From positions 71,327-135,326 of the forward strand of contig CAVVQV010000017.1 of the NCBI GenBank assembly GCA_963750495.1: a DNA stretch of 64,000 nt, in the 5' to 3' direction. Positions 5,379 through 30,881 of the stretch are shown piece by piece. Position numbers and translations under genes: made by a program. The notes beneath the pieces were generated by a model. The model did not search any database. It was given only the letters and a program-made list of their open reading frames with translations, and had not been told where the DNA came from. Each line of letters opens with the position of its first letter. The stretch's first letter is position 1. The stretch is from an uncultured Actinomycetota bacterium (GTDB taxonomy: Bacteria > Actinomycetota > Actinomycetes > Propionibacteriales > Nocardioidaceae).

Positions 5379-6950
5379 GTGGCGACCGGCATGACCTACT
5401 CCGTCGCGCTCGACGGAGTCACCGGCCGGGTGGTCCCGGTCGAGGCCGACATCAGCGACGGCGTGTCCGGCTGGTCGCTGTCCGGGATGCCCGATCCCAG
5501 CGTGACGACGGCCCGCGACCGCTGTCGAGCGGCCCTGATCAACAGCAGGTTCCGGTGGCCCGACCGACGTCTGACGGTCGCTCTCTACCCGCCCGACGTT
5601 CCCAAGGTCGGGTCGCACTACGACCTGGCGATCGCGCTCGCACTCCTGGCGGCCGATGGCAGGCTCGCCGCTGACTCCCTCCGCGAGACGGCCGTCCTCG
5701 GAGAGCTGGGTCTCGACGGGAGGTTGCGCCCGGTGGCCGGCGTTCTCCCCGCAGCCCTGACGTCTGCCGCGGCCGGACTGTGCCGGATCATCGTCCCGGA
5801 GGCAAACGCCAACGAAGCCGGACTGGTTCCCGGGCTGGACGTGACCGCCGTCCGCACCTTGCGCGAGTGCGTGGCCGTGCTCACCGGCGAGGATCTCGGT
5901 GCAGACGACCTGCCACCCATTGCGGAGTTCGAGCCGGCCGGGGCCGACTGGGACGACGTCGACGACCGTGATCTGGCCGACGTCCGTGGCCAGACCCAGG
6001 CGAGGTGGTGCGTTGAGGTGGCCGCCGCCGGAGGACATCATCTATCGCTCGAAGGGCCTCCCGGAGCAGGCAAGACGATGCTCGCGGAGCGATTCGCTCC
6101 GTTGCTGCCTGACCTGACACTCGGCGCGGCCATCGAGGTGAGCCAGATCCACAGCGTCGCGGGCCTGCTGACCCGCGAGCGTCCGTTGCTGACGCGTCCG
6201 CCGTTCCTCGCCCCGCACCACAACGACACGGTCCCCTCGGTGGTGGGTGGTGGTGCCAAGGTGATCCGCCCGGGCGCGATCAGCCTGGCGCATCGCGGCG
6301 TGCTGTTCCTCGACGAGGCGCCGGAGTTCCGACCGACGGTTCACGACGCCCTCCGGCAACCCTTGGAGAGTGGGCGTATCTCGATCCGGCGCGCCGAGGG
6401 TGCCGCCACCTTCCCGGCCCGCTTCCAATTGATCCTGGCGGCCAATCCCTGCCCCTGCGGCGGCGACACGCTGCACAACACCTGTCGGTGCGAGGCGATG
6501 AAGCGACGTCGCTACCGGCAACGCATCAGCGGACCAGTCCGCGACCGTATCGACATCGTCCACACCGTGATCCCGGTGTCTCCTGCCGAGATGCTGCAGC
6601 CGATCGGTTGGCGGGGGACGACGGCGGCCGTCAGGGACCGCGTGCTCGCGGCGCGTGAGCGACAGGGCAGACGCTTCGACGGGATGCCCTGGACGGTCAA
6701 CGCGGTCGCGCCGGCCGCCGACTTCCGCGGGGTCTGTCCGGTGAGCGACGAAGTCAGCCGGGCGATCGGGGACGCGGTGGCGAAGGGATACCTCACCCAG
6801 CGCGGAGCCGACCGCGTGGTTCGGCTCACCTGGACGCTGGCTGACCTGGCCGGGCTGGACCGACCCGGGCCAGAGCAGGCACAGGAGGCGTTGCACCTGC
6901 GCACCGACGGTGGTGCCGGTGTGTCCTACCGATCGGCGGAGGTGGCCTGA
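5379..6950 (+). CDS. yifB: YifB/ComM family Mg-chelatase-like AAA+ ATPase
   Basis: N-terminal Lon-protease-like domain, Walker A GPPGAGKTMLA, Walker B GVLFLDEAPEF, Cys-rich NPCPCG...CRC insert and C-terminal ChlI-like domain. The start is GTG 5379 or ATG 5391. Confidence 0.92.
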   Translation: MATGMTYSVALDGVTGRVVPVEADISDGVSGWSLSGMPDPSVTTARDRCRAALINSRFRWPDRRLTVALYPPDVPKVGSHYDLAIALALLAADGRLAADSLRETAVLGELGLDGRLRPVAGVLPAALTSAAAGLCRIIVPEANANEAGLVPGLDVTAVRTLRECVAVLTGEDLGADDLPPIAEFEPAGADWDDVDDRDLADVRGQTQARWCVEVAAAGGHHLSLEGPPGAGKTMLAERFAPLLPDLTLGAAIEVSQIHSVAGLLTRERPLLTRPPFLAPHHNDTVPSVVGGGAKVIRPGAISLAHRGVLFLDEAPEFRPTVHDALRQPLESGRISIRRAEGAATFPARFQLILAANPCPCGGDTLHNTCRCEAMKRRRYRQRISGPVRDRIDIVHTVIPVSPAEMLQPIGWRGTTAAVRDRVLAARERQGRRFDGMPWTVNAVAPAADFRGVCPVSDEVSRAIGDAVAKGYLTQRGADRVVRLTWTLADLAGLDRPGPEQAQEALHLRTDGGAGVSYRSAEVA

Positions 6951-14533: not shown

Positions 14534-15226
14534 TCAGCCCCGAGGTACCGGCCGTGGGTTGCTGGCGATCACGACGGTGTTGCTGAGGTAGATCTGACCG
14601 TTGTAGTCGGCGCACGTGACGATCGCGAGTCGCTCCGGCCCGGTCTGGTCGAAGACCCGGCCGGCCTTGGACGCGAGCAGACCCTTCCGGTAGGTCCTGA
14701 CCGACGTGATCGTGTAGCGAAGGTTCTGCCGGCTCCGCTGCAGAGTCACCCGGTCCCCGACGTGGACTGCGGCGAGGTTGTCCAGCGCCCCGCCGCCGGT
14801 ATGCACCGTGTGTCCGGTGATGATCGTTGTGCCGTAGCCGTCACCGGGTCGCGCACCGGCCGCCCACCAGCCGACGGTCGTGTAGTCCGACGGCGGTGTC
14901 AGGATCAGCGAACCGTCGGTGCCGATCGGTGACACCGCCGCTCCGACGCCGATGCTCGGGAGCACGAGGCGCTGCGGTGGGGTGTGCAACAGGCGCGGTT
15001 GCCGCTGGGGCTTGGAGCTGTCGGCTCGGTGGTGCTTCTTCGCCATGTGCGGTGAAGGGCCGGGCCGTCCAGGAAGGTGCTTCTGGGCGGCACCGATCTT
15101 CGGATCGGGCTTGGCATCGGCGATGCTCGCCGATCCGTCATGCCAGGTGATGGCAGACAGACCGGCGAGCGCCAGACCGACAAGTACTACGAGCGGGGCG
15201 TAGACCCTACGCCTCATGCTGTCCAC
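14534..15226 (-). CDS. sortase family transpeptidase (actinobacterial class E/F-like)
   Basis: N-terminal TM anchor, conserved His (TIITGHTVH) and a Cys active site in LAIVTCAD (TLxTC type). It overlaps the stop of the upstream surface-protein gene by 20 nt. Confidence 0.85.
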   Translation of the reverse strand: MDSMRRRVYAPLVVLVGLALAGLSAITWHDGSASIADAKPDPKIGAAQKHLPGRPGPSPHMAKKHHRADSSKPQRQPRLLHTPPQRLVLPSIGVGAAVSPIGTDGSLILTPPSDYTTVGWWAAGARPGDGYGTTIITGHTVHTGGGALDNLAAVHVGDRVTLQRSRQNLRYTITSVRTYRKGLLASKAGRVFDQTGPERLAIVTCADYNGQIYLSNTVVIASNPRPVPRG

Positions 15227-15884
15227 GACGGCGCATCAGCGCGAACGCTCCGCTCGCCGCGATGGCCAGGCCACCGAGGATGCCGAGCGCTGACAGGACG
15301 TGCGAGGAGGAGCCGCCGCTCGCCGGGGGACCGCTGATCCCGGCCTCGACGGCGGTGGGAACCGGCCGGGTGCTCTCGGTCGGCAGCACGTTCGTGGTCG
15401 TTGTGCGGGTCGACTCAGAAGGCAGCACCGGGGTGGTCTCTGTCGTCTGCGTCGTCGTCGGGGCCGTGGTGGGCACGGTCGTCGGGTGCGTCTCGTTCGT
15501 GTCGCAGCTCACGATGCCGACAGCAGCCTCGAAGAGCTGCTGGGGAGCCATGTACGTGACAAAGACGTCGCTCGACGCTGTGACACCGGCACCGGGTGAG
15601 GTGAAGGACCACGTGAAGTCGCCGGTCTGCACTCCGGGCTGGGTGACACCGTTGACGCTCAAGGTGGCGCTGCTGGCCATGGTCGGGCCGGCCAGGTTGA
15701 ACTCCCACGTCAGGATGCCGTCCTCGCAGGGCAGGAACTCAGCTCCTGCTCCGCCCCAGGCCTGCGTGTAGCTGGAGTCGTCGAGGGCCGCGGGGGCTGT
15801 GTTCGCGGAAGCCTGAGACAGTGCGCCGAAGCCGGCGATGACGATCGCGACGGCTGCGGCGAGGAAGTACACCATGCGTTTCAT
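15207..15884 (-). CDS. secreted Thr/Pro-stalk surface protein with a C-terminal hydrophobic helix and RRR tail (putative sortase substrate)
   Basis: Signal peptide MKRMVYFLAAAVAIVIAGFGALSQASA, a ~110-aa globular part with 2 Cys, a TTxPT stalk, then VLSALGILGGLAIAASGAFALMRRRGQHEA. No canonical LPXTG motif. Confidence 0.75.
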   Translation of the reverse strand: MKRMVYFLAAAVAIVIAGFGALSQASANTAPAALDDSSYTQAWGGAGAEFLPCEDGILTWEFNLAGPTMASSATLSVNGVTQPGVQTGDFTWSFTSPGAGVTASSDVFVTYMAPQQLFEAAVGIVSCDTNETHPTTVPTTAPTTTQTTETTPVLPSESTRTTTTNVLPTESTRPVPTAVEAGISGPPASGGSSSHVLSALGILGGLAIAASGAFALMRRRGQHEA

Positions 15885-22761: not shown

Positions 22762-23622
22762 TCACCAGGCCTGGGCGAGCAGCTCGGCCAGCAGCTCGTC
22801 GGCGTCGACCTCGAGTCCGCGCGAGGTGAACCAGGCGCTCACGTTGCGGCAGTCGCGATGGAGCAGGTCGACGCCGTTGTGGTTGCTGACGATGTCGATC
22901 ACTTGAGGTACGTCGATGATCACCACGCGATCGCCCTGCACGAGGATGTTGTACGGCGAGAGGTCGCCATGGGCGAGGTGACGCCGAGCCAGCACCGCCA
23001 TGGCCTCCCGAAGCTGTTCGAAGTACGACTCGACCGTGCTCCTGTCCGGGCGTACCTGGGCCAAGCGGGGGGCTGCGGCGCCGTCGACGTCGATGAACTC
23101 CATCAGGATCTCGGTGCCGTCGATCTGGACGGGGTAGGGGACCGGGATCCCGGCTGACCACATCGACGCCAACGCGGCGAACTCATGACTGGCCCACTCG
23201 CCGGCCTGCACCTGCTTCCCGAACGCCGTACCCCGGGCGGCGGCCCGCGCCTCGCGGCTCTTACGGATCCGGCGGCCTTCGGTGTAGCCCGCGTCGCGAT
23301 GGAACTGACGATGGTGCGTGCTGCGGTAACGCTTGGCGGCCAGCAGGGTGGTGCGGAGCGGGTCGCCGGGCACGCCGCGCTCGAGCAGGAAGACGTCGGC
23401 CTCCTTGCCGGTCTTCAGGACGCCGAGCTCGGTATCGACAGCGCCGTCTTCGGTGACGACCCAGGCCGGACGGGGCTCCGGTCCGTGGGCACCCTTCTCG
23501 ACCGACGACCAGGTCGACCAACGCTGGTCGTCGGAGAGGTCGTCGAGCGGGCGGAACGTCAGGCCGGCGGGCTGTTGCGGGCGTGCCGGGTCGGTGAGCG
23601 ATTCAGATGGGACGACATGCAT
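22762..23622 (-). CDS. RIO-type atypical serine protein kinase
   Basis: LKTGKEADVFLLE (nucleotide-binding loop/Lys), HGDLSPYNILV catalytic loop, IIDVPQ metal-binding loop. ATG 23622 follows GAGGAG. The ORF-track start at 23775 adds 51 Arg/Pro-rich residues. Confidence 0.85.
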   Translation of the reverse strand: MHVVPSESLTDPARPQQPAGLTFRPLDDLSDDQRWSTWSSVEKGAHGPEPRPAWVVTEDGAVDTELGVLKTGKEADVFLLERGVPGDPLRTTLLAAKRYRSTHHRQFHRDAGYTEGRRIRKSREARAAARGTAFGKQVQAGEWASHEFAALASMWSAGIPVPYPVQIDGTEILMEFIDVDGAAAPRLAQVRPDRSTVESYFEQLREAMAVLARRHLAHGDLSPYNILVQGDRVVIIDVPQVIDIVSNHNGVDLLHRDCRNVSAWFTSRGLEVDADELLAELLAQAW

Positions 23623-24051
23623 GGTGGTGGTGACTCCTCGAGCGGGTCGAGGCACCACAGCCGCAATCAGCGGGGGAAGGACCTCGACAGGGAAGGGACG
23701 CGGTAGCGCGACCCCTGGACCGGGGTTGACATCTCGACGCCTCCTTCGCTCGAAGCGGCTGACACGGCCGGACATGGACGCGGTTCGTCCCTACCGGTGT
23801 CGACACCAGGGTGGCAGGGCGGCGGCACCGGGTGCAACGGGTTTTCCGGGCTGCCGCAGACCCGCCGGAGTCCTCGCGGCGAACGCCGCCAATCCTTGCG
23901 GTTGTGTGACGAACTTGTGCAAGAGGCCGCTGACCCCTTGCGTCCTGTTCCTGTAAAGCGCATCCTTCTCGGTGCAAGGACCAGTGCAGACGCGACCGGG
24001 CCCGGGAGGCAGCCAGGTCGCAACCGTCCGAACCAGGAGGTTCACGCGTCA

Positions 24052-24113
24052 CCCCGCCCACGTGCGGGGCCACTGGGAGATGGCTTTCCATCTCATCCTT
24101 GCCAAGGAAGGTA
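24052..24113 (+). promoter_or_regulatory. structured 5-prime leader just upstream of the DUF4331 gene (two hairpins plus possible SD occlusion)
   Basis: Hairpin CCCCGC-n6-GCGGGG at 24052-24069. Perfect 7-bp hairpin GAGATGG-cttt-CCATCTC at 24077-24094. TCCTT-gcc-AAGGA (24097-24109) pairs the AAGGA Shine-Dalgarno that precedes ATG 24120. Confidence 0.3.
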
Positions 24114-24119
24114 CGAAGC

Positions 24120-25727
24120 ATGACTTCGTTGCTGCGTCATCGCCGAACCCGGGCGGCCATCGCCGCCTTCGCCTCATCCGCTCTCGCACTCGGAACGGCC
24201 GCTGTTCTCTTGGGCGCCGAGTCGGGCACCGCGTCCAGCCACCGCGAGGCTCCACTGCTGCTGTCCGACCCACAGGTCGACAACACCGACGTCTACGCGT
24301 TCGTGAGCCCGGACCGCCAAGGGACTGTCACCCTCCTGGCGAACTGGATCCCGTTCGAAGATCCGGCCGGGGGCCCGAACTTCTACCCGTTCGCCACCCA
24401 GGACGGAGCCCGCTACAACATCAACATCGACAACAACGGTGATGCCAAGCCAGACCTCACCTACCGCTGGACGTTCCGCTCCAGCTACCGCAACACGAAC
24501 ACGTTCCTCTACAACACCGGTCAGGTCACGAGCCTCGGCGACAAGGACCTCAACTTCCGCCAGCACTACACGCTGACCAAGATCAACTGGAACAAGGGCA
24601 GGCACGGCTACTCCAAGACGTTGATCAAGAGCGGCCGGGTCGCGCCGTCGAACGTGGGCGCTGCGTCGATGCCGGATTACACGTCCTTGAGCGACGCGGC
24701 CGTCACGCACTTCGGTAGCGGCAACCGTCGCACGTTCGCCGGCCAGGCCGACGACCCGTTCTTCCTCGACCTGCGCGTGTTCGACCTGCTGTACGGCGCG
24801 GACCTGAGCGAGACCGGTAACGACACCCTGTCGGGGTACAACGTCAACACGATCGCGCTGCAGGTGCCCAAGGGCGACCTGACGCACGGCAACGACCCGA
24901 CGATCGGCATCTGGAGCACGACGGACCGTCGCAGCGTCAAGGTGACGAACCCCGGCAGCCAGTCGTACAAGGGCAAGTTCGTCCAGGTCTCTCGACTCGG
25001 CAACCCGCTCGTGAACGAGGTCGTGATCCCGGTTGGGCTCAAGGACGCGTTCAACTCGCTGAAGCCGCAGGACGACGCGAGTGTCAAGCCTGCAGTTAAC
25101 AAGGTGCTTCGTCCCGAGGTGCCCAAGCTGATCGAGTCCATTTACGGCATCAAGGCGCCCAAGGAGCCGCGCGACGACCTGTTCAGTGTCTTCCTGACCG
25201 GCGTCAAGGGGCTGAACATGCCGAAGGGCAAGGTGCAGCCGGCCGAGCTGTTGCGGCTGAACACGTCGATCAAGCCCAGTGCGAAGCCGGACCGCCTCGG
25301 CGTGCTCGGTGGCGACACGGCGGGCTTCCCGAACGGCCGACGGCTTGCTGACGACGTCGTGGACATCGAGCTGCAGGCGCTCGAGGGCGCTGTCCGCACC
25401 GGGACCCTGGTCCCCGGGCTGACCGACGCGGTCGACGCCAACGACCTGCCGTTCAGGCAGCACTTCCCCTACGTCGCGGTCGCGCACTCCGGCTCCGCCA
25501 CGACTCCGGGAACGCCTAAGGCGGGGACGAGCCAATCGGCGTACACGGCGGCACCGGACCGTGCACAGCTGGCTGGCTCGACGCAGGTGGCACCGGTGAC
25601 GACCTCAGCGTCGTCGTCAGAGGCTCCGCTGGCGCTCATCGTCGCCACGCTGGGTCTCGGCCTGGGCGGGCTCGGCGTGGTTCTGGTTCGCCAGGGCCGC
25701 CGCCGCAGCGTACTCCGCACCGGCTGA
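24120..25727 (+). CDS. DUF4331 domain-containing secreted protein with a C-terminal membrane anchor
   Basis: Signal peptide, then SSHREAPLLLSDPQVDNTDVYAFVSPD...NWIPFEDPAGGPNFYPF, the conserved DUF4331 N-terminus. C-terminal LALIVATLGLGLGGLGVVLVRQGRRR. ATG 24120 follows AAGGAAGG. Confidence 0.85.
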   Translation: MTSLLRHRRTRAAIAAFASSALALGTAAVLLGAESGTASSHREAPLLLSDPQVDNTDVYAFVSPDRQGTVTLLANWIPFEDPAGGPNFYPFATQDGARYNINIDNNGDAKPDLTYRWTFRSSYRNTNTFLYNTGQVTSLGDKDLNFRQHYTLTKINWNKGRHGYSKTLIKSGRVAPSNVGAASMPDYTSLSDAAVTHFGSGNRRTFAGQADDPFFLDLRVFDLLYGADLSETGNDTLSGYNVNTIALQVPKGDLTHGNDPTIGIWSTTDRRSVKVTNPGSQSYKGKFVQVSRLGNPLVNEVVIPVGLKDAFNSLKPQDDASVKPAVNKVLRPEVPKLIESIYGIKAPKEPRDDLFSVFLTGVKGLNMPKGKVQPAELLRLNTSIKPSAKPDRLGVLGGDTAGFPNGRRLADDVVDIELQALEGAVRTGTLVPGLTDAVDANDLPFRQHFPYVAVAHSGSATTPGTPKAGTSQSAYTAAPDRAQLAGSTQVAPVTTSASSSEAPLALIVATLGLGLGGLGVVLVRQGRRRSVLRTG

Positions 25728-25733
25728 TGGAAC

Positions 25734-25773
25734 CCGACGGTGCGGCTTGTTCCCTGAGCGGCCGCACCGTCGG
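25734..25773 (+). terminator. GC-rich stem-loop after the DUF4331 gene (no U tract)
   Basis: CCGACGGTGCGGC-n14-GCCGCACCGTCGG, a 13-bp perfect stem starting 7 nt after TGA 25725-25727. Confidence 0.45.
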
Positions 25774-25824
25774 CCCGTCGACCGTGGTGCCGGGCCCATC
25801 CCCCGGGACCACGGCCTGGCCCTA

Positions 25825-25866
25825 CCCATCCCCGCAGTCCCATCCCCGCAGTCCCATCCCCGCAGG
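25825..25866 (+). repeat. 14-bp tandem repeat x3 (CCCATCCCCGCAGT)
   Basis: Three head-to-tail copies in the DUF4331-TPR intergenic region. The last copy ends in G. Confidence 0.9.
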
Positions 25867-25899
25867 CCGTCGTCTCGCTGGTGACTCGAAAGGCTCGTC

Positions 25900-27231
25900 A
25901 TGACAGGAACCCGGTTCCTCCGGCTCGGTCTCGCGGCCGTGTCCCTGAGCGTGCTGCTGGTCCTCGTGTCGGCGGTGCTCTTCACGCGATCCGACTCAGC
26001 CACCCCCCAACCGCTCGGCCGGGCACCGGTCGCCGCATCAGAACTCGCCACGTCCGGCGACCTGTCCGCCACGATCGCGTCACTGCAGTCGAGGCTGCAA
26101 CGGTTGCCATCGGACTCCGAGTCGTGGGCGGCGCTCGGTGCTGCCTATGTGCAACAGGCCCGGATCACCGGCGATCCGAGCTACTACCCCAAGGCTGCCG
26201 GGGTACTGGCCCGCTCGCTGAAGGAGTCGCCGACCGACAACGCGGCCGCGCTGACCGGCGAGGCCGCGCTGGCGGCAGCCCGGCATGACTTCCAGGGTGC
26301 CTATGGGCTCACCTCGAAGGCCATGGACATCAACGCCTTCAACTCGTCGACGATGGCCATCCAGTTCGACGCGCTCATCGAGCTCGGACGCTATGACGAT
26401 GCGCTTCGGGCGCTGAAGAGGTACGCCGGTCTGAAGCCCGGGGTACCGGTGTACACCCGGATCTCGTACAACTACGAGCTTCACGGAAACGTCCGGGGGG
26501 CGACGTACGCCATGCGGCGCGCGCTCGACATCGCGTACTCGCCCGACGACCGCGCTTTCGCGCTGTTCGAGCTCGGCGAGCTGGCATGGAATGCCGGCCG
26601 GCTCGAGAAGGCGTCGTCGCTGTACGGACAAGGGTGGCGCACGGACCCCAGCTACGTCGCCAACCTGTACGGGCTCGCGAAGACCGATGCGGGACTGGGC
26701 CGGGCAGACCGCGCGGTCCGCCGGTATCAGGACGTGATCAACCGGCTGCCGCAGCCCGCGTACATCATCGAGTACGCCGACCTGCTCACCTCACTGGGTC
26801 GTACCGACGAGGCGGCGACACAAGGCCGCTTGATCGATGCCCAGCAGCGGATCTTCCGGGCTGCTGGGGTCAATCTCGACCTGGAGCTCGCGCTCTACGA
26901 CGCGTCGCACGGAAGACCTGCACGCGCCTTGGAGCAGGCCCGGCAGGCCTGGCACGAACGCAAGAGCATCTTCGTCGAGGATGCCTACGCCTGGGCGCTG
27001 CACGTCAACGGTCGTGACCGTGCTGCCCTCCGTCATCTGGACTCCGCCGAGCGGCTCGGCACTCGAAGCGCACTGTTCGCGTTCCACCGCGGGATGGTCG
27101 AACGCTCGCTGGGCCATCGCGTCGAGGCGATCTCGTCCCTGCGCAAGGCGCTCGCGATCAACCCGGCGTTCAACCCGATCTTCGCGACGCAGGCTCGGCA
27201 GGCGATGCAGGCCATGGAGCGGGGGAACTGA
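25900..27231 (+). CDS. tetratricopeptide-repeat protein with an N-terminal membrane anchor
   Basis: N-terminal TM segment (LRLGLAAVSLSVLLVLVSAVLF), then repeated Ala/Tyr/Leu-rich 34-residue TPR-like helices along the whole length. Confidence 0.8.
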   Translation: MTGTRFLRLGLAAVSLSVLLVLVSAVLFTRSDSATPQPLGRAPVAASELATSGDLSATIASLQSRLQRLPSDSESWAALGAAYVQQARITGDPSYYPKAAGVLARSLKESPTDNAAALTGEAALAAARHDFQGAYGLTSKAMDINAFNSSTMAIQFDALIELGRYDDALRALKRYAGLKPGVPVYTRISYNYELHGNVRGATYAMRRALDIAYSPDDRAFALFELGELAWNAGRLEKASSLYGQGWRTDPSYVANLYGLAKTDAGLGRADRAVRRYQDVINRLPQPAYIIEYADLLTSLGRTDEAATQGRLIDAQQRIFRAAGVNLDLELALYDASHGRPARALEQARQAWHERKSIFVEDAYAWALHVNGRDRAALRHLDSAERLGTRSALFAFHRGMVERSLGHRVEAISSLRKALAINPAFNPIFATQARQAMQAMERGN

Positions 27232-27232
27232 G

Positions 27233-28900
27233 ATGACCCGTCCCGCACGCAAGTCCCTGCGTCGCCGGGCCCTGCTCTTCACGGTCCTGGTGGCAGGCCT
27301 GGTGCTCGGACCGGCGTACGCCGCAAGCGCCCACCCGCTCGGGAACTTCACGATCAACCATTTCAACGGCCTCCGTGTCACCGAGACGGCCATCACCGAC
27401 AACGCGGTGATCGACTCGGCTGAGCTCCCCACCATCTCCGACCGCGACACGGTGGACTCCGACGGCGACGGCACCATCACCACGGCCGAGCGAGCGGCGT
27501 ACGCCGTCGACCGCTGCGGCACCTTCGCGAACCAGGTCGTCCTGACGGTCGGGGGAGCCGTGACACCGTGGACCGTGACCCGGACGAGTTACACGTATCA
27601 GCCGGGCGCCGCCGGCCTCGAGACCGGCCGGCTCGAGTGCGGACTGGAGGCGAGCGTCGACCTGACGTCGCCGGCCCGCATCACGTTCGACGACCGGTAC
27701 CTGAGCCAGCGGATCGGCTGGCGGGAGATCACCGCGGTCGGGCAGGGCGTCAACCTCGGCGAACGGGACGTGGCCACGCAGAGCATCTCCGACGAGCTCC
27801 GTGCCTACCCGAACAACCTGCTCACCTCACCACTCGACCAGCGGTCGGTGACGTTCGATGCCAAGCCCGGTGCCGACTCCGGTGGGTCACCACTGCCGAC
27901 CGTGTCCGGCGCCGGACCGTTCTCGTCCATGCTCGCCGGCGTCACGACGCACCTGGACAGTCTCGTGGGCGGCGAGCACCTCACGCTCGGGGTGGGGTTG
28001 CTCGCGGTGCTCCTGTCCTTGCTGCTCGGCGCTTCCCACGCGGCATTGCCGGGGCACGGCAAGACCCTGATGGCCGCGTACATGGTCGGTACCCGGGGCA
28101 CTCCTCGCGACGCCGTGCTCATCGGCGCCACGGTCACCCTGGCGCACACGTCGGGCGTCCTCGTGCTGGGGCTGTTGTTCAACGCGTCCGCGTCGTTCGC
28201 CGGTGAGACCGTCCTTGCCGTGCTCGGCATCATCAGCGGACTGCTCGTGGCCGCCATCGGTGTCACGTTGGTGCGCGGCGCCTGGCGACGGCACCGGGTC
28301 AGCAGTGTCGACGAGCTGTGGGGTCACGGCCACGGCCACGGCCACGGCCACGGTCACGGCCACGGCCACGGTCACGGCCATGAGCAGGGGCACCCGGCCG
28401 CATCGGGACCCGACGATCGCCCGTCCGCCACCGGCGACGCCACCGAGCAGAGCTCCTCGGACACGCTCGTGCTGACGTCAGCGCCCGTCGGTGGGCCTGG
28501 TCCCGACCACGCGCATGACCACTCCCACGACCACGCCCGCGACCACGCCCACGCGAAGGGCGAGCAGGGGTTCCGCCGGATGACGCTGGTCGGCATGGGA
28601 CTGGCCGGCGGGCTGGTGCCGAGCCCTTCCGCGCTGATCGTGTTGCTCGGTGCGATCGCCCTTGGCCGGACAGTCTTCGGCATCGGTCTGGTGCTGGCCT
28701 ACGGCATCGGGATGGCCGCGACCCTCACCACGATCGGCTACCTGTTCGCCAAGCTGCCCGGTCGGTTGTCCCGGCTGCGGCGGTTCTCCACCCACCGCTG
28801 GCTGACCCGCCTCGCCACGGCCGGGCCGGTGCTCACGGCCGGCCTGGTTCTCGTCGTGGGCCTGGCACTGGCCTGGCGCAGCGCGAGCCCACTGGTCTGA
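27233..28900 (+). CDS. NicO/RcnA-type metal permease fused to an N-terminal extracytoplasmic domain
   Basis: Signal peptide ending AYAASA|HPLGNFTINHF. EF-hand-like loop DSDGDGTITTAE. NicO signature LLGASHAALPGHGKTLMAAYMVG. His-rich loop (GH)10...DHAHDHSHDHARDHAH. ATG 27233 lies 1 nt after the TPR stop. The ORF-track start at 26837 overlaps the TPR gene. Confidence 0.85.
   Translation: MTRPARKSLRRRALLFTVLVAGLVLGPAYAASAHPLGNFTINHFNGLRVTETAITDNAVIDSAELPTISDRDTVDSDGDGTITTAERAAYAVDRCGTFANQVVLTVGGAVTPWTVTRTSYTYQPGAAGLETGRLECGLEASVDLTSPARITFDDRYLSQRIGWREITAVGQGVNLGERDVATQSISDELRAYPNNLLTSPLDQRSVTFDAKPGADSGGSPLPTVSGAGPFSSMLAGVTTHLDSLVGGEHLTLGVGLLAVLLSLLLGASHAALPGHGKTLMAAYMVGTRGTPRDAVLIGATVTLAHTSGVLVLGLLFNASASFAGETVLAVLGIISGLLVAAIGVTLVRGAWRRHRVSSVDELWGHGHGHGHGHGHGHGHGHGHEQGHPAASGPDDRPSATGDATEQSSSDTLVLTSAPVGGPGPDHAHDHSHDHARDHAHAKGEQGFRRMTLVGMGLAGGLVPSPSALIVLLGAIALGRTVFGIGLVLAYGIGMAATLTTIGYLFAKLPGRLSRLRRFSTHRWLTRLATAGPVLTAGLVLVVGLALAWRSASPLV
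28322..28381 (+). repeat. in-frame GGYCAC microsatellite encoding (Gly-His)10
   Basis: GGT CAC (GGC CAC)4 GGT CAC (GGC CAC)2 GGT CAC GGC CAT inside the NicO cytoplasmic loop. Confidence 0.95.
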
Positions 28901-28994
28901 CCCGGCTGACCTCCGCACCACCGCAGATGCCCTCGGGTCGAGGGGTTGGCAGGATGGGGTGGACCCTGGGATTCCGGGCCGGAGGAGGCGCATC

Positions 28995-30881
28995 ATGAGC
29001 AGCTACCGCGCGACGTACGACGCCAGCGTGCAGGATCCGGAGACGTTCTGGCGCGAGTGCGCCGGGCTCGTCGACTGGTTCAGCAAGCCGTCGGAGATCC
29101 TCGACCGCTCCCGTCCACCCTTCTATCGCTGGTACACCGGTGGGCGCCTCAACACCTGCTACAACGCGCTCGACCGGCACGTCATCAAGGGACGCGGTGA
29201 CCAGACGGCGCTGATCTACGACAGCGCAGTGACCGGGCAGGTGAAGCGGTTCACGTACGCCGAGCTGCTGGAGGAGGTCGCCGCCTTCGCGGGTGGGCTG
29301 GCCGGTCTCGGGGTCACGCCGGGCGATCGCGTGGTCATCTACATGCCGATGATCCCCGAGGCCGTGGTCGCGATGCTGGCCTGCGCCCGGCTCGGGGCGG
29401 TGCACTCGGTGGTGTTCGGCGGCTTCGCCGCAGCCGAGCTCGCGCTTCGCATCGACGACGCTCGGCCCACCGTGGTGGTGTCGGCCTCGTGCGGCATCGA
29501 ACCCGCGCGGACCGTGGCCTACAAGCCGCTGCTGGATGCGGCTCTCGACCTCGCCACCCACCGGCCGGCCGCGGTCGTGGTGAAACAACGTCCCGAGCTC
29601 GAGGCCGACCTCGATCCGCCGCGGGACCTCGACTATGCCGTGGTGCTGAAGGCCGGCCGCGACGACCCGGCTCCGTGCGCGGACGTGGCCGCGACCGATC
29701 CGCTCTACATCCTCTACACCTCCGGAACCACCGGAAAGCCCAAGGGGATCGTGCGCGACAACGGTGGCCACGCGGTCGCCCTCGCCTGGTCGATGCACAA
29801 CATCTACGACGTGTCAGCAGGCCAGGTGTGGTGGACGGCGTCGGATGTCGGCTGGGTGGTCGGACACTCCTACATCGTGTACGCGCCGTTGATCGTCGGC
29901 GCCACCACCGTCCTGTTCGAGGGGAAACCGGTGGGTACGCCGGATGCCGGGACGTTCTGGCGGGTCGTCGAGGACCACGGGGTCCAGGGGTTGTTCACAG
30001 CGCCGACGGCCATCCGGGCCATCAAGAAGGACGACCCCGAGGGCGAACACGTACGCCGCCACGACGTCTCCACGCTGCGGCACCTCTTCCTGGCCGGCGA
30101 GCGGCTCGACCCCGAGACCTACCACTGGGCGTCGGACCAGCTCGGCATCCCGGTGGTGGACCACTGGTGGCAGACCGAGACGGGTTGGCCGATCGTGGCG
30201 AACCTACGTGGATTGGAGCCGATGGAGATCAAGCCGGGGTCGCCGACGGTCCCGGTCCCGGGTTACGACGTCGTGGTGCTCGACGAGAAAGGGGAGGAGG
30301 TGGCTCCCGGCACCGAAGGCGCCATCTGCATCCGCTTGCCGCTTCCCCCCGGCAATCTGCCGACGCTGTGGCACGACGATGACAGGTTCGTCTCCTCCTA
30401 CCTCAGCGCCTTCGACGGCTACTACCTCTCCGGTGACGGTGGGTTTGTCGACGACGACGGCTACGTGTTCGTGATGGGACGCACCGACGACGTGATCAAC
30501 GTGGCCGGACACCGCCTCTCGACGGGGTCGATGGAGGCGGTCCTCGCCGCACATCCGGACGTGGCCGAGTGTGCGGTCATCGGCACCGCGGACGCCCTGA
30601 AGGGTCAGCTGCCACGGGGATTCGTGGTGCTCAAAGCGGGACACGAGGTCGATGAGGCCACCTTGGCTGCCGAGCTCATCGCTGCCGTCCGCGCCCAGAT
30701 CGGCCCGGTGGCGGCGTTCAAGGACGTGAGCGTCGTACCGGCGCTGCCGAAGACGAGGTCGGGCAAGATCCTGCGCAAGACGATGCGTCAGATCGCCGAC
30801 GGAGACGATCCGGCCGTCCCATCCACGATCGAGGATCCAGCGGTCCTGGACGCGATGAAGCCGAGTCTGCTCCGGGGTTGA
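28995..30881 (+). CDS. prpE: propionate--CoA ligase (acyl-CoA synthetase, AMP-forming)
   Basis: YRATYDASVQDPETFW N-terminus, AMP-binding signature YTSGTTGKPKG, and C-terminal TRSGKILRKTMR. ATG 28995 follows GGAGGAGG. Acetate versus propionate specificity is an inference. Confidence 0.85.
   Translation: MSSYRATYDASVQDPETFWRECAGLVDWFSKPSEILDRSRPPFYRWYTGGRLNTCYNALDRHVIKGRGDQTALIYDSAVTGQVKRFTYAELLEEVAAFAGGLAGLGVTPGDRVVIYMPMIPEAVVAMLACARLGAVHSVVFGGFAAAELALRIDDARPTVVVSASCGIEPARTVAYKPLLDAALDLATHRPAAVVVKQRPELEADLDPPRDLDYAVVLKAGRDDPAPCADVAATDPLYILYTSGTTGKPKGIVRDNGGHAVALAWSMHNIYDVSAGQVWWTASDVGWVVGHSYIVYAPLIVGATTVLFEGKPVGTPDAGTFWRVVEDHGVQGLFTAPTAIRAIKKDDPEGEHVRRHDVSTLRHLFLAGERLDPETYHWASDQLGIPVVDHWWQTETGWPIVANLRGLEPMEIKPGSPTVPVPGYDVVVLDEKGEEVAPGTEGAICIRLPLPPGNLPTLWHDDDRFVSSYLSAFDGYYLSGDGGFVDDDGYVFVMGRTDDVINVAGHRLSTGSMEAVLAAHPDVAECAVIGTADALKGQLPRGFVVLKAGHEVDEATLAAELIAAVRAQIGPVAAFKDVSVVPALPKTRSGKILRKTMRQIADGDDPAVPSTIEDPAVLDAMKPSLLRG

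Follow-up and report, generated by a model that had tools for sequence, protein, structure and literature searches.

Do three adjacent genes of an uncultured actinobacterium encode one device for handling a metal ion in the cell envelope, and if so, which ion moves and in which direction? The question is raised by a stretch of 64,000 nucleotides (referred to here as the window) from a member of the Nocardioidaceae (GenBank assembly GCA_963750495.1, contig CAVVQV010000017.1, positions 71,327 to 135,326), in which three co-directional genes on the forward strand encode a secreted DUF4331 protein (gene 1), a membrane-anchored protein of tetratricopeptide repeats (TPR; gene 2) and a NicO-type permease that is fused to an N-terminal outer domain (gene 3). 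The first-pass annotation of this DNA had delineated the three genes and proposed that they act as one capture, hand-off and transport unit, and their coordinates and direction were borne out by the listing of open reading frames and by direct reading (Table 1). As set out below, the module is likely to be a metal-trafficking unit with an anglerase-like domain, and we give even chances to the narrower reading, namely an uptake relay of the envelope, the ion of which would most likely be of the Cu(II)/Ni(II) type and would most likely move inward.

The outer domain of gene 3

The product of gene 3 is predicted to consist of a signal peptide, an outer domain and a membrane domain. Signal-peptide cleavage positions, here and for gene 1, were predicted by the -3/-1 rule only, and by this rule the mature protein starts with a histidine, as had been read earlier from the sequence AYAASA|HPLGNF. 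In sets of 108 and 100 homologues the alanine at position -1 is conserved to at least 90 %, and the histidine at the predicted position +1 (His1 of the mature protein, His34 of the precursor) is invariant in 108, 35 and 100 homologues, that is, throughout the family as sampled. Behind the alanine the outer domain of the homologues starts with H-P-L-G-x-F, with Asn5 at least 90 % conserved (A|HPLGNF); the invariant mature residues are H1, P2, L3, G4, F6, D28, A30, E31, G129 and W130, and a conserved pair of cysteines and the motif LRxYPxxLLxSPLD are found in addition. In profile searches, residues 34-245 matched no Pfam or NCBIfam family.

A recent study described the anglerases Ang-1 (Pseudomonadota) and Ang-2 (Actinomycetota), which are immunoglobulin (Ig)-like domains with a histidine as the first mature residue (Franco Cairo et al., Nat Commun 2025, PMC12537917). 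This histidine forms a mono-histidine brace, and the domains bind Cu2+ at about 60-70 nM, with Ang-1 also binding Ni2+ at 220 nM. Each domain is fused to a HupE/UreJ-2 permease, and it was proposed that they “fish” ions and feed them to the channel (PMC12537917). The AF2 model of the gene 3 outer domain, calculated from 108 sequences (predicted local distance difference test, pLDDT, 89.5; predicted TM-score, pTM, 0.83), places strands at residues 8-16 and 20-29 and helices at 31-41 and 51-68, followed by the β-sandwich. Its first-ranked Foldseek match is 9GCE, the Cu-bound structure of Ang-1 (E 5e-5, probability 1.0), and the weaker matches include the Zn-binding protein PA4063 (7BGO/7AHW), which is marginal with E about 0.02. 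The earlier guess of a histidine-brace or HupE-like coordination has therefore gained independent backing from a structure and from the literature, since the fold is best matched by a Cu-bound domain that exposes an N-terminal histidine and sits on a permease. Judged from the model, gene 3 has the same design as an anglerase and probably the same fold, with a sequence family of its own and a different permease.

A second element of the outer domain that had been picked out before, the EF-hand-type loop DSDGDGTITTAE, is indeed present between the two predicted helices and fits the 12-residue pattern D-x-D-x-D-G-x-I-x-x-x-E. Positions 1 and 12 of the loop are conserved to at least 90 % among 100 representatives, and the outer domain gives weak matches to EF-hand and lanmodulin chains (E 0.2). 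The loop probably binds Ca2+ structurally, or else provides a second site.

When 1.84 billion representatives were searched with a trimmed profile of the outer-domain family, 3,739 clusters matched at E<=1e-3, mostly proteins of 450-600 aa. The architecture was judged from the alignment consensus of 100 family representatives, and since HAxxPGHGK, the signature of the permease, is at least 90 % conserved in them, the outer domain is almost always fused to this type of permease. Stand-alone forms with a C-terminal anchor also exist, and there the next gene encodes a separate NicO protein. Such a split is seen in three of the related loci (designated L001 and so on), L081-L083, where an HPLGNF domain that stands alone and is anchored C-terminally precedes a separate NicO protein of 312 aa (8001-9957 in L081). 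The neighbourhood of this split form contains a copper storage protein (Csp), DUF305/DUF4142 proteins, a CopY/BlaI-type repressor with an M56 peptidase, and a TetR regulator.

The permease domain of gene 3

Transmembrane (TM) helices were predicted from hydropathy and the sides of the loops from the positive-inside pattern. The membrane domain, with six predicted helices, matches the NicO family PF03824 above its cut-off (45.2 bits against 27.7; residues 258-550, profile positions 4-283 of 287), and the features on which the permease had first been assigned are all there, namely HAALPGHGK, the (GH)10 stretch (aa 364-383) and DHAHDHSHDHARDHAH (at aa 425), the latter two within a loop of 112 residues. 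This loop is predicted to be cytoplasmic because Arg-rich stretches adjoin it. The best NCBIfam match is the RcnA nickel/cobalt efflux subfamily PRK10019, confined to aa 257-406 and scoring 93.7 bits, below the cut-off of 195, and therefore the statement that NicO permeases move Ni/Co is not transferable to gene 3. The E-value for PF03824 is 1e-11, as against 4e-104 for the NiCoT proteins encoded next to the module in L014, L050 and L060, which carry GMRHAFDADH. The TM2 signature of NiCoT permeases (HoxN/NixA) is RHAxDADH, and no such motif is present in gene 3. Neither was a match to HupE/UreJ-2 (PF13795) found by Pfam, and hhalign of the two membrane domains gave a probability of 0.15 %; a weak Pfam match to DsbD_2 (E 9e-4) was noted as well. 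Matches of gene 3 to SLC30A1 among PDB entries cover residues 296-423 including the His-rich loop, and were set aside as probably compositional.

The DUF4331 protein and the TPR protein

Gene 1 matches PF14224 over the full profile (526.1 bits, cut-off 27; positions 1-420 of 421, residues 39-454), while the NCBIfam profile search gave it no name. As supposed in the first-pass annotation, the protein is predicted to be secreted and anchored, with a signal-like helix at the N-terminus and a tail rich in Ser, Thr, Pro and Ala that closes with a TM helix and RQGRRR. The tails vary in the family, and some proteins of related loci have none at all. SSHREAP lies at the predicted cleavage site, right behind G-T-A, and is at least 90 % conserved across 60 DUF4331 homologues, as is the whole of A38-P45. 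These homologues, which are 59-75 % identical, share 58 or more invariant columns, and their main motifs are A|SSHREAP, DNTD, NIDNNGDAKPD, QADDPFF, SRLGNPLVNE and GFPNGRRLxDDVVD; the conserved side chains are mostly Asp, Asn and Gly.

If the signal peptide is cut after the conserved alanine, the mature DUF4331 protein would start with S-S-H, with the histidine at +3 rather than +1. Of the earlier claim that two components expose an N-terminal histidine, the part on gene 3 thus stands and the part on DUF4331 does not. X-X-His at a free amino terminus is an amino-terminal Cu(II)- and Ni(II)-binding (ATCUN) site, and the S-S-H end would be of this type if the predicted cleavage is right. Divergent members of the family read ALA|SDH and SAADH, and the histidine is possibly at +2 in some of them. 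Both putative chelating ends of the module, His1 and X-X-His, would be typical of Cu(II)/Ni(II).

The DUF4331 family has 8,000 candidate homologues or more, all 8,000 at E<=1e-3. For gene 1, neither the Foldseek fold search nor phmmer nor the profile search returned a PDB match, and in its AF2 model the most conserved motifs are the least confident (pLDDT <50). Two DUF4331 paralogues occur in or beside the module in L027, L038, L050, L055, L056, L072 and L086, often one with an anchor tail and the other tail-less.

Gene 2 encodes an all-TPR protein, as previously described, with several TPR models above their cut-offs (TPR_14 49.5 against 23.5, TPR_19 47 against 25, TPR_2 41.9 against 27) and a single N-terminal TM helix predicted at aa 9-27. 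The TPR body is predicted to be extracytoplasmic, and it has a sub-threshold Pfam match to the TPR domain of CcmH/CycH. The junction with gene 3, reported as TGA-g-ATG, is exact, with 1 nt between the two genes; the corresponding genes of L084-L086 share 4 nt, and the tight coupling of the TPR and permease genes is therefore conserved.

Conserved linkage of the three genes

One genome per species was scanned with the DUF4331 protein of the window, which gave 567 relatives, and the best 80 of the 567 loci were used; synteny counts refer to the 60 loci in which the downstream flank measures 5 kb or more, and gene order was read by tblastn with the window proteins. The closest relatives are metagenome-assembled genomes (MAGs) of Nocardioidaceae/Propionibacteriales type. 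A TPR gene is present in 57/60 loci and all three genes in 51/60, and the canonical order, with all genes co-directional, was found in 46/58. The order DUF4331, TPR, outer domain plus NicO recurs in Streptomyces, Kitasatospora, Amycolatopsis, Actinoplanes, Nonomuraea, Actinomadura, Frankia, Jatrophihabitans and Iamia, and also in Acidimicrobiia, Nitriliruptorales and one Dormiibacterota MAG. The linkage of the three families, which the proposal of a common unit presupposed, is thus syntenic in most loci and more than chance. Furthermore, the genes outside the module vary from locus to locus, and the trio is therefore a self-contained unit.

The same picture emerges from the permease side, for which six independent contigs were picked by homologues of the gene 3 outer domain: four of the six (L084, L085, L086 and L088) carry DUF4331 and TPR genes directly upstream. 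One of these, L084, has a G+C content of 46 %, and is therefore not from an actinobacterium of the window's type. The association is not without exceptions, since DUF4331 and TPR genes occur without a permease in four loci (L024, L035, L051 and L064), and no DUF4331 gene accompanies the outer domain and NicO in L081-83 and L087.

The neighbours of the module include further genes of metal homeostasis. In L085 the trio is directly followed by genes for a FUR-family regulator, a second NicO protein, CDF, Nramp, a multicopper oxidase and ZIP, and a HoxN-type NiCoT gene adjoins the module in three loci (L014, L050 and L060). Fasciclin proteins are encoded near it in four loci. The clues to the transported metal point several ways, and among them is the preference for Cu2+ shown by the solved relatives of the outer domain.

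Leader, promoter and intergenic elements

The first-pass annotation had assigned to the module a leader of about 500 nt. A spacer does precede gene 1, and its length has to be reduced: conservation of the divergent RIO1-kinase gene (- strand) extends to an ATG at 23775, and because 23600-23790 is conserved like coding sequence, this is most likely the start of the kinase gene, which would thereby gain an N-terminal extension of about 50 aa that is probably real. The untranslated spacer before gene 1 therefore amounts to about 344 nt. Its downstream part, a leader of about 170 nt, is near-identical in L001-L003 and partly kept in L004, the DUF4331 protein of which is 72 % identical to gene 1, and the spacer upstream of it is variable among close relatives. 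The leader contains two hairpins, and two copies of CATCCTT that are complementary to the ribosome-binding site AAGGAAGG; it could act as a regulatory RNA specific to the lineage, or bind a protein. A riboswitch was considered and rejected, with no Rfam match (E<=1, 23300-29200), no compensatory pairs in RNAalifold and no significant folding energy (z-score only -1.74); so was a leader peptide, as the frame ending in ATGA at the start of gene 1 has no credible start codon after AGGAGG.

Boxes of Nur, Zur or Fur type, for which the leader had been singled out, did not materialize: with consensus sequences for Zur, Nur, IdeR, CsoR, Fur, RcnR and NikR boxes, and shuffled sequences as controls, the best matches were no better than the shuffles. 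Scans for sigma-70 promoter and intrinsic terminator consensus sequences gave nothing useful. By contrast, k-mer enrichment in 76 upstream regions of related loci yielded the motif CCAATCCG-N14-CCGAAT upstream of DUF4331 genes. It occurs 16 times in 34 kb of sequence upstream of DUF4331, where the remainder of the loci would predict 0.54, a contrast that is inflated because these same regions had served to derive the motif. Matches at 12 or more of 14 positions are found in L007, L017, L027, L030, L033, L038, L041, L042, L062, L064-L067 and L071-L073, and the motif often recurs in the same spacer on the other strand, before divergent neighbours. In L014 it stands before genes for an extracytoplasmic function (ECF) sigma factor and an anti-sigma factor, at 5580(+) and 13505(-). 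Genes for ECF sigma factors lie near the module in eight loci and in L085, L086 and L088; for the six that were tested the NCBIfam SigK model ranks first or second, in one case above the cut-off, and the anti-sigma genes beside the module carry RskA domains. The consensus of SigK promoters, like the motif, ends in CCGAAT. The occurrence of the motif suggests that in many actinomycetes the module belongs to an ECF-sigma regulon, probably of SigK type (ECF19-like). In the window itself no sigK/rskA pair is present within the 64 kb, and the spacer holds a weak promoter-like element (CCAATCC-N14-CGAACT) in a block that is kept in L001 and L002 within otherwise variable sequence; if it acts as a promoter, it would give a 5' untranslated region of about 200 nt.

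Two stem-loops follow the stop codon of gene 1 and are conserved in L001, L002 and L004, in the last of which bases are changed and the stems kept. A T-tract is lacking, and the scan for terminator consensus sequences was empty there. A partial terminator or an RNA-stabilising element is possible, and the stem-loops may lower read-through into genes 2 and 3. They are followed by three exact tandem copies of CCCATCCCCGCAGT (3 x 14 nt), a repeat that is specific to the window, being absent from L001, L002 and L004, and that stands where related loci have a class F sortase gene.

Sortases and other additions in relatives

In at least 19 related loci (including L006, L007, L008, L010, L019, L025, L039, L043, L044, L049, L058, L060 and L073) a class F sortase gene is inserted between the DUF4331 and TPR genes. 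The inserted gene scores 175.6 bits against the class F model NF033748 (cut-off 166) and also matches the Sortase family of Pfam. The DUF4331 proteins linked to it carry the motif G[GA]V.[AT]G.GG[TSA], which precedes the TM helix and Arg cluster by 15-40 residues, and those without a sortase neighbour mostly lack it. From its position and distribution the motif looks like a non-LPXTG sorting signal, and DUF4331 would be the first candidate substrate of the class F sortases of actinomycetes; for class F sortases in general, a 2026 study states that the physiological roles are still unknown. In the window, genes 1 and 2 have no sortase gene between them, and the tail of gene 1 lacks the G[GA]V.[AT]G.GG motif.

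Elsewhere in the window, a sortase-like gene (14534-15226, - strand) gives a weak class F match of 73 bits, below the cut-off. Just upstream of it, a gene (15207-15884, - strand) encodes a secreted protein of 225 aa without a Pfam family, the tail of which, AVEAGISG...TM...RRR, resembles the motif of sortase-linked DUF4331. In ten loci (L014, L020, L025, L035, L039, L043, L047, L050, L055 and L058) the permease gene is accompanied by a conserved gene whose lipoprotein-like product (about 116 aa) has two Cys and belongs to no Pfam family; none is found in the module of the window.

Proposed mechanism and alternatives

As an uptake relay the module would work as follows. Gene 3 would form the core, a six-helix RcnA-like permease on which a histidine, first after signal cleavage, is presented by an anglerase-like β-sandwich. 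The TPR protein would be a membrane-anchored scaffold, translationally coupled to gene 3 and placed on the same side of the membrane, and DUF4331 would be an abundant surface protein, tethered by its C-terminal helix here and accompanied by a sortase F neighbour in many relatives. The ion would be bound at the surface by DUF4331, which the TPR protein would hold beside the permease, and passed to His1 of the outer domain with the invariant Asp28/Glu31. The outer domain would then swing across the channel mouth, so that the ion could cross via the histidines of HAxxPGHGK and THT and be received by the cytoplasmic His-rich loop. The analysis shows the identities of the genes, the predicted topology, the conserved synteny and coupling, the match of the fold to a solved Cu-binding domain and the invariance of His1 across the family; we infer the identity of the ion, its direction, the hand-off steps and the cleavage positions, and among these direction and metal are the weak points. 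A far-reaching version, in which a relay widespread in Actinomycetota and some other phyla passes Cu/Ni from the cell wall to the channel by way of two amino-terminal chelating sites, the X-X-His of DUF4331 and His1, with a SigK-type switch and with sortase-F anchoring of DUF4331 to the wall by a non-LPXTG signal in many of its members, is put forward as a tentative and rather unlikely extension.

Several observations speak against the uptake relay. The characterised relative of the permease, RcnA of E. coli, is an exporter, and the LysE-type superfamily, in which RcnA is placed, consists mostly of exporters. The Foldseek TM-scores of the outer domain against 9GCE are modest (0.36/0.44), and its sequence-profile similarity, by hhalign, is weak to Ang-1 (probability 16.8 %; 64 columns, in the equivalent region) and absent to Ang-2 (MmAng-2a, 0.1 %; anglerase sequences from the supplement of PMC12537917). 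When the outer-domain profile was compared with PDB sequences, 9GCE was not among the matches. As to DUF4331, His41 is the sole near-invariant histidine outside the tail in the 60 homologues, the conservation of the protein is as strong as that of an enzyme, its AF2 model, built from the same homologues, is poor (pLDDT 63.8) and shows no site, and a literature search found no paper that mentions DUF4331 or PF14224. DUF4331 plus TPR and the permease also occur separately, and both halves can therefore work apart. Finally, none of the metal-regulator boxes rises above the shuffled controls in the leader, and in relatives the module is preceded by a promoter motif of ECF-sigma type and adjoined by genes of SigK type; the signal of SigK is not known to be a metal.

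The alternative that survives best, to which we assign a minor share of the probability, turns the direction around: the permease would export the ion from its His-rich loop, the His1 domain would take it up outside and load it into apo-DUF4331, a surface metalloprotein or enzyme in this reading, and the TPR protein would act as an assembly chaperone. Such outward metallation agrees with the established export function of E. coli RcnA and with the standing of DUF4331 as the best-conserved partner, with its 58 or more invariant columns and enzyme-like pattern, although the conserved residues are mostly Asp, Asn and Gly, not typical ligands of Cu/Ni, and no catalytic fold emerged from the poor AF2 model or the empty PDB searches. 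That DUF4331 and TPR genes are kept without a permease in L024, L035, L051 and L064 is readily accommodated, as is the sub-threshold match of the TPR protein to the apocytochrome-chaperone domain of CcmH/CycH; the permease with its outer domain, however, is also found without a nearby DUF4331 gene. The stem-loops after gene 1 would permit a higher dose of DUF4331 than of genes 2 and 3, and the promoter motif with its SigK-type neighbours would fit the biogenesis of envelope proteins, while the published model for N-terminal-His permease domains is one of uptake.

An RcnA-type efflux system for metal resistance, in which the accessory proteins (cf. RcnB) would stop re-entry of the ion, appears improbable. 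It would account for the best NCBIfam match, a nickel/cobalt efflux subfamily, yet this score stays below the cut-off (93.7 against 195), and the His-rich loop, which resembles those of RcnA and of CDF exporters, is accompanied by an N-terminal-His capture domain of presumed high affinity and a large surface protein that plain efflux can hardly justify. The CDF and multicopper oxidase genes near the module in L085 and the copper-tolerance-type neighbourhood in L081 point to efflux, but genes for uptake (Nramp, ZIP and NiCoT) are neighbours as well, and no regulator or box of RcnR, CsoR, ArsR or MerR type was found near the module in the window and in most loci. Equally improbable is an ECF-sigma envelope module with a main role other than metal transport, with DUF4331 as a sortase-F-displayed enzyme or adhesin and gene 3 in DsbD/CcdA-like exchange of redox equivalents or small molecules: the promoter motif before DUF4331 in 16 loci, the SigK/RskA genes adjoining several modules, the fasciclin genes near four loci that recall the M. 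tuberculosis SigK regulon, the sortase in at least 19 loci and the weak DsbD_2 match (E 9e-4) are met by a gene 3 that lacks the paired Cys of CcdA/DsbD, its equivalent motifs having His instead, and that contains a loop with 19 His, by the match of the outer domain to a Cu-binding domain, and by metal-homeostasis genes as recurrent neighbours.

If the far-reaching version of the relay is true, it would provide the first function for DUF4331, the first physiological substrate for the class F sortases of actinomycetes, and the first SigK-type regulon output of known purpose outside mycobacteria. The acquisition of metals by soil actinomycetes is relevant to antibiotic production, and to nutritional immunity in their pathogenic relatives.

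Flanking genes and feature coordinates

The module is flanked by genes for the RIO1 kinase and an SLOG protein on the reverse strand and for an acyl-CoA synthetase and Dak1 on the forward strand, which are unrelated to it. The features of the module are collected in Table 1.

Table 1. Coordinates of the genes, predicted domains and sequence elements of the module; nt, position in the window; aa, residue of the encoded protein.
Feature	Position	Strand	Basis
Weak ECF-sigma-type promoter-like element, CCAATCC-N14-CGAACT	nt 23889..23915	+	11/14 motif positions
Conserved leader of gene 1	nt 23953..24119	+	near-identical in L001-L003, partly kept in L004
Leader hairpin, CCCCGC...GCGGGG	nt 24052-24069	+	sequence
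Leader hairpin, GAGATGG-CTTT-CCATCTC, perfect 7-bp stem	nt 24077-24094	+	sequence
Gene 1, DUF4331 protein, 535 aa	nt 24120..25727	+	PF14224, E 1e-157
Gene 1, predicted signal peptide	aa 1-38	+	N-terminal signal-like helix by hydropathy
Gene 1, SSHREAP motif	aa 39-45, nt 24234-24254	+	directly behind G-T-A site
Gene 1, predicted C-terminal TM helix	aa 505-523, nt 25632-25688	+	hydropathy; followed by RQGRRR
Two stem-loops after gene 1 stop	nt 25735-25772, 25782-25814	+	conserved in L001, L002, L004
Three tandem copies of CCCATCCCCGCAGT	nt 25825..25866	+	sequence
Gene 2, TPR protein, 443 aa	nt 25900..27231	+	several TPR models above gathering cut-offs
Gene 3, outer domain plus NicO permease, 555 aa	nt 27233..28900	+	PF03824 match
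Gene 3, predicted signal peptide, ending A-S-A|H	aa 1-33, nt 27233..27331	+	-3/-1 rule
Gene 3, outer domain, mature 1-212	aa 34-245, nt 27332..27967	+	AF2 β-sandwich
Gene 3, EF-hand-type loop DSDGDGTITTAE	aa 75-86 (mature 42-53), nt 27455-27490	+	between predicted helices 31-41 and 51-68
Gene 3, RcnA-like NicO membrane domain, six predicted TM helices	nt 27980..28897	+	hydropathy, PF03824
Gene 3, HAALPGHGK signature	aa 269-277, nt 28037-28063	+	HAxxPGHGK at least 90 % in 100 representatives
Gene 3, His-rich loop, 112 residues, 19 His	nt 28265-28600	+	between helices 3 and 4

Comparison with known systems

With RcnA of E. coli gene 3 shares HAxxPGHGK, six predicted helices and a His-rich loop. 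Both also have an extracytoplasmic accessory protein encoded alongside, periplasmic RcnB in E. coli, whereas the partners of gene 3 are DUF4331 and TPR proteins; moreover, gene 3 adds an N-terminal outer domain of 212 aa that lies outside the RcnA subfamily profile, and the leader scan and most loci yielded no regulator or box of RcnR type. A parallel in logic is offered by YcnJ of B. subtilis, a CopC-CopD fusion that works with the membrane-tethered YcnI in copper uptake. Both systems fuse a domain with an N-terminal histidine, metal-binding in YcnJ and putatively so in gene 3, to a permease, and as with YcnI, the module has a second, membrane-anchored extracytoplasmic protein, putatively metal-binding, in the same operon. 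The families are unrelated; no CopC, CopD or DUF1775 domain was found in the module by Pfam, and the type of regulator differs. PA4063 of P. aeruginosa, a Zur-regulated periplasmic Zn-binding β-sandwich and a marginal fold match to the outer domain, represents a group of proteins that are soluble and without a permease fusion, unlike gene 3.

The SigK-RskA regulon of M. tuberculosis comprises fasciclin antigens and the DsbD-like DipZ, and SigK of this species is not known to control a DUF4331 or NicO module. In relatives of the window SigK-type sigma and RskA genes adjoin the module, whereas the window itself offers the 11/14 motif and no such gene pair. The genes mpt70/mpt83 belong to the M. 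tuberculosis regulon (Veyrier et al.; PMC7509140).

The closest likeness is to the anglerases. In both, an invariant histidine follows right behind the signal peptide (predicted cleavage in gene 3), the domain is (in the AF2 model of gene 3) an Ig-like β-sandwich with helices between strands 2 and 3, and a low-complexity linker leads to a C-terminal multi-helix metal permease; a conserved acidic residue near position 30 is Asp33 in Ang-2 and Asp28/Glu31 in gene 3. The permease of the anglerases is HupE/UreJ-2 (PF13795), whereas that of gene 3 is RcnA-like NicO (PF03824), and the main text of the anglerase study mentions neither NicO nor RcnA (PMC12537917). Gene 3 further differs by its own HPLGNF start, the EF-hand-type loop, the Cys pair and the long cytoplasmic His-rich loop, and by its partners DUF4331, TPR and often sortase F, which are not reported in that paper. 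The locus extends the anglerase work by a new outer-domain family, a different permease and conserved DUF4331, TPR, sortase F and SigK-type partners, none of which had been described, and it ties an anglerase-like design to DUF4331, a family of more than 8,000 candidate homologues and no published function. An idea published in 2025 for one permease family is met here on another, in several thousand clusters for which there is no Pfam model, and the recurrence of the anglerase design on a different permease therefore points to a general, modular solution.

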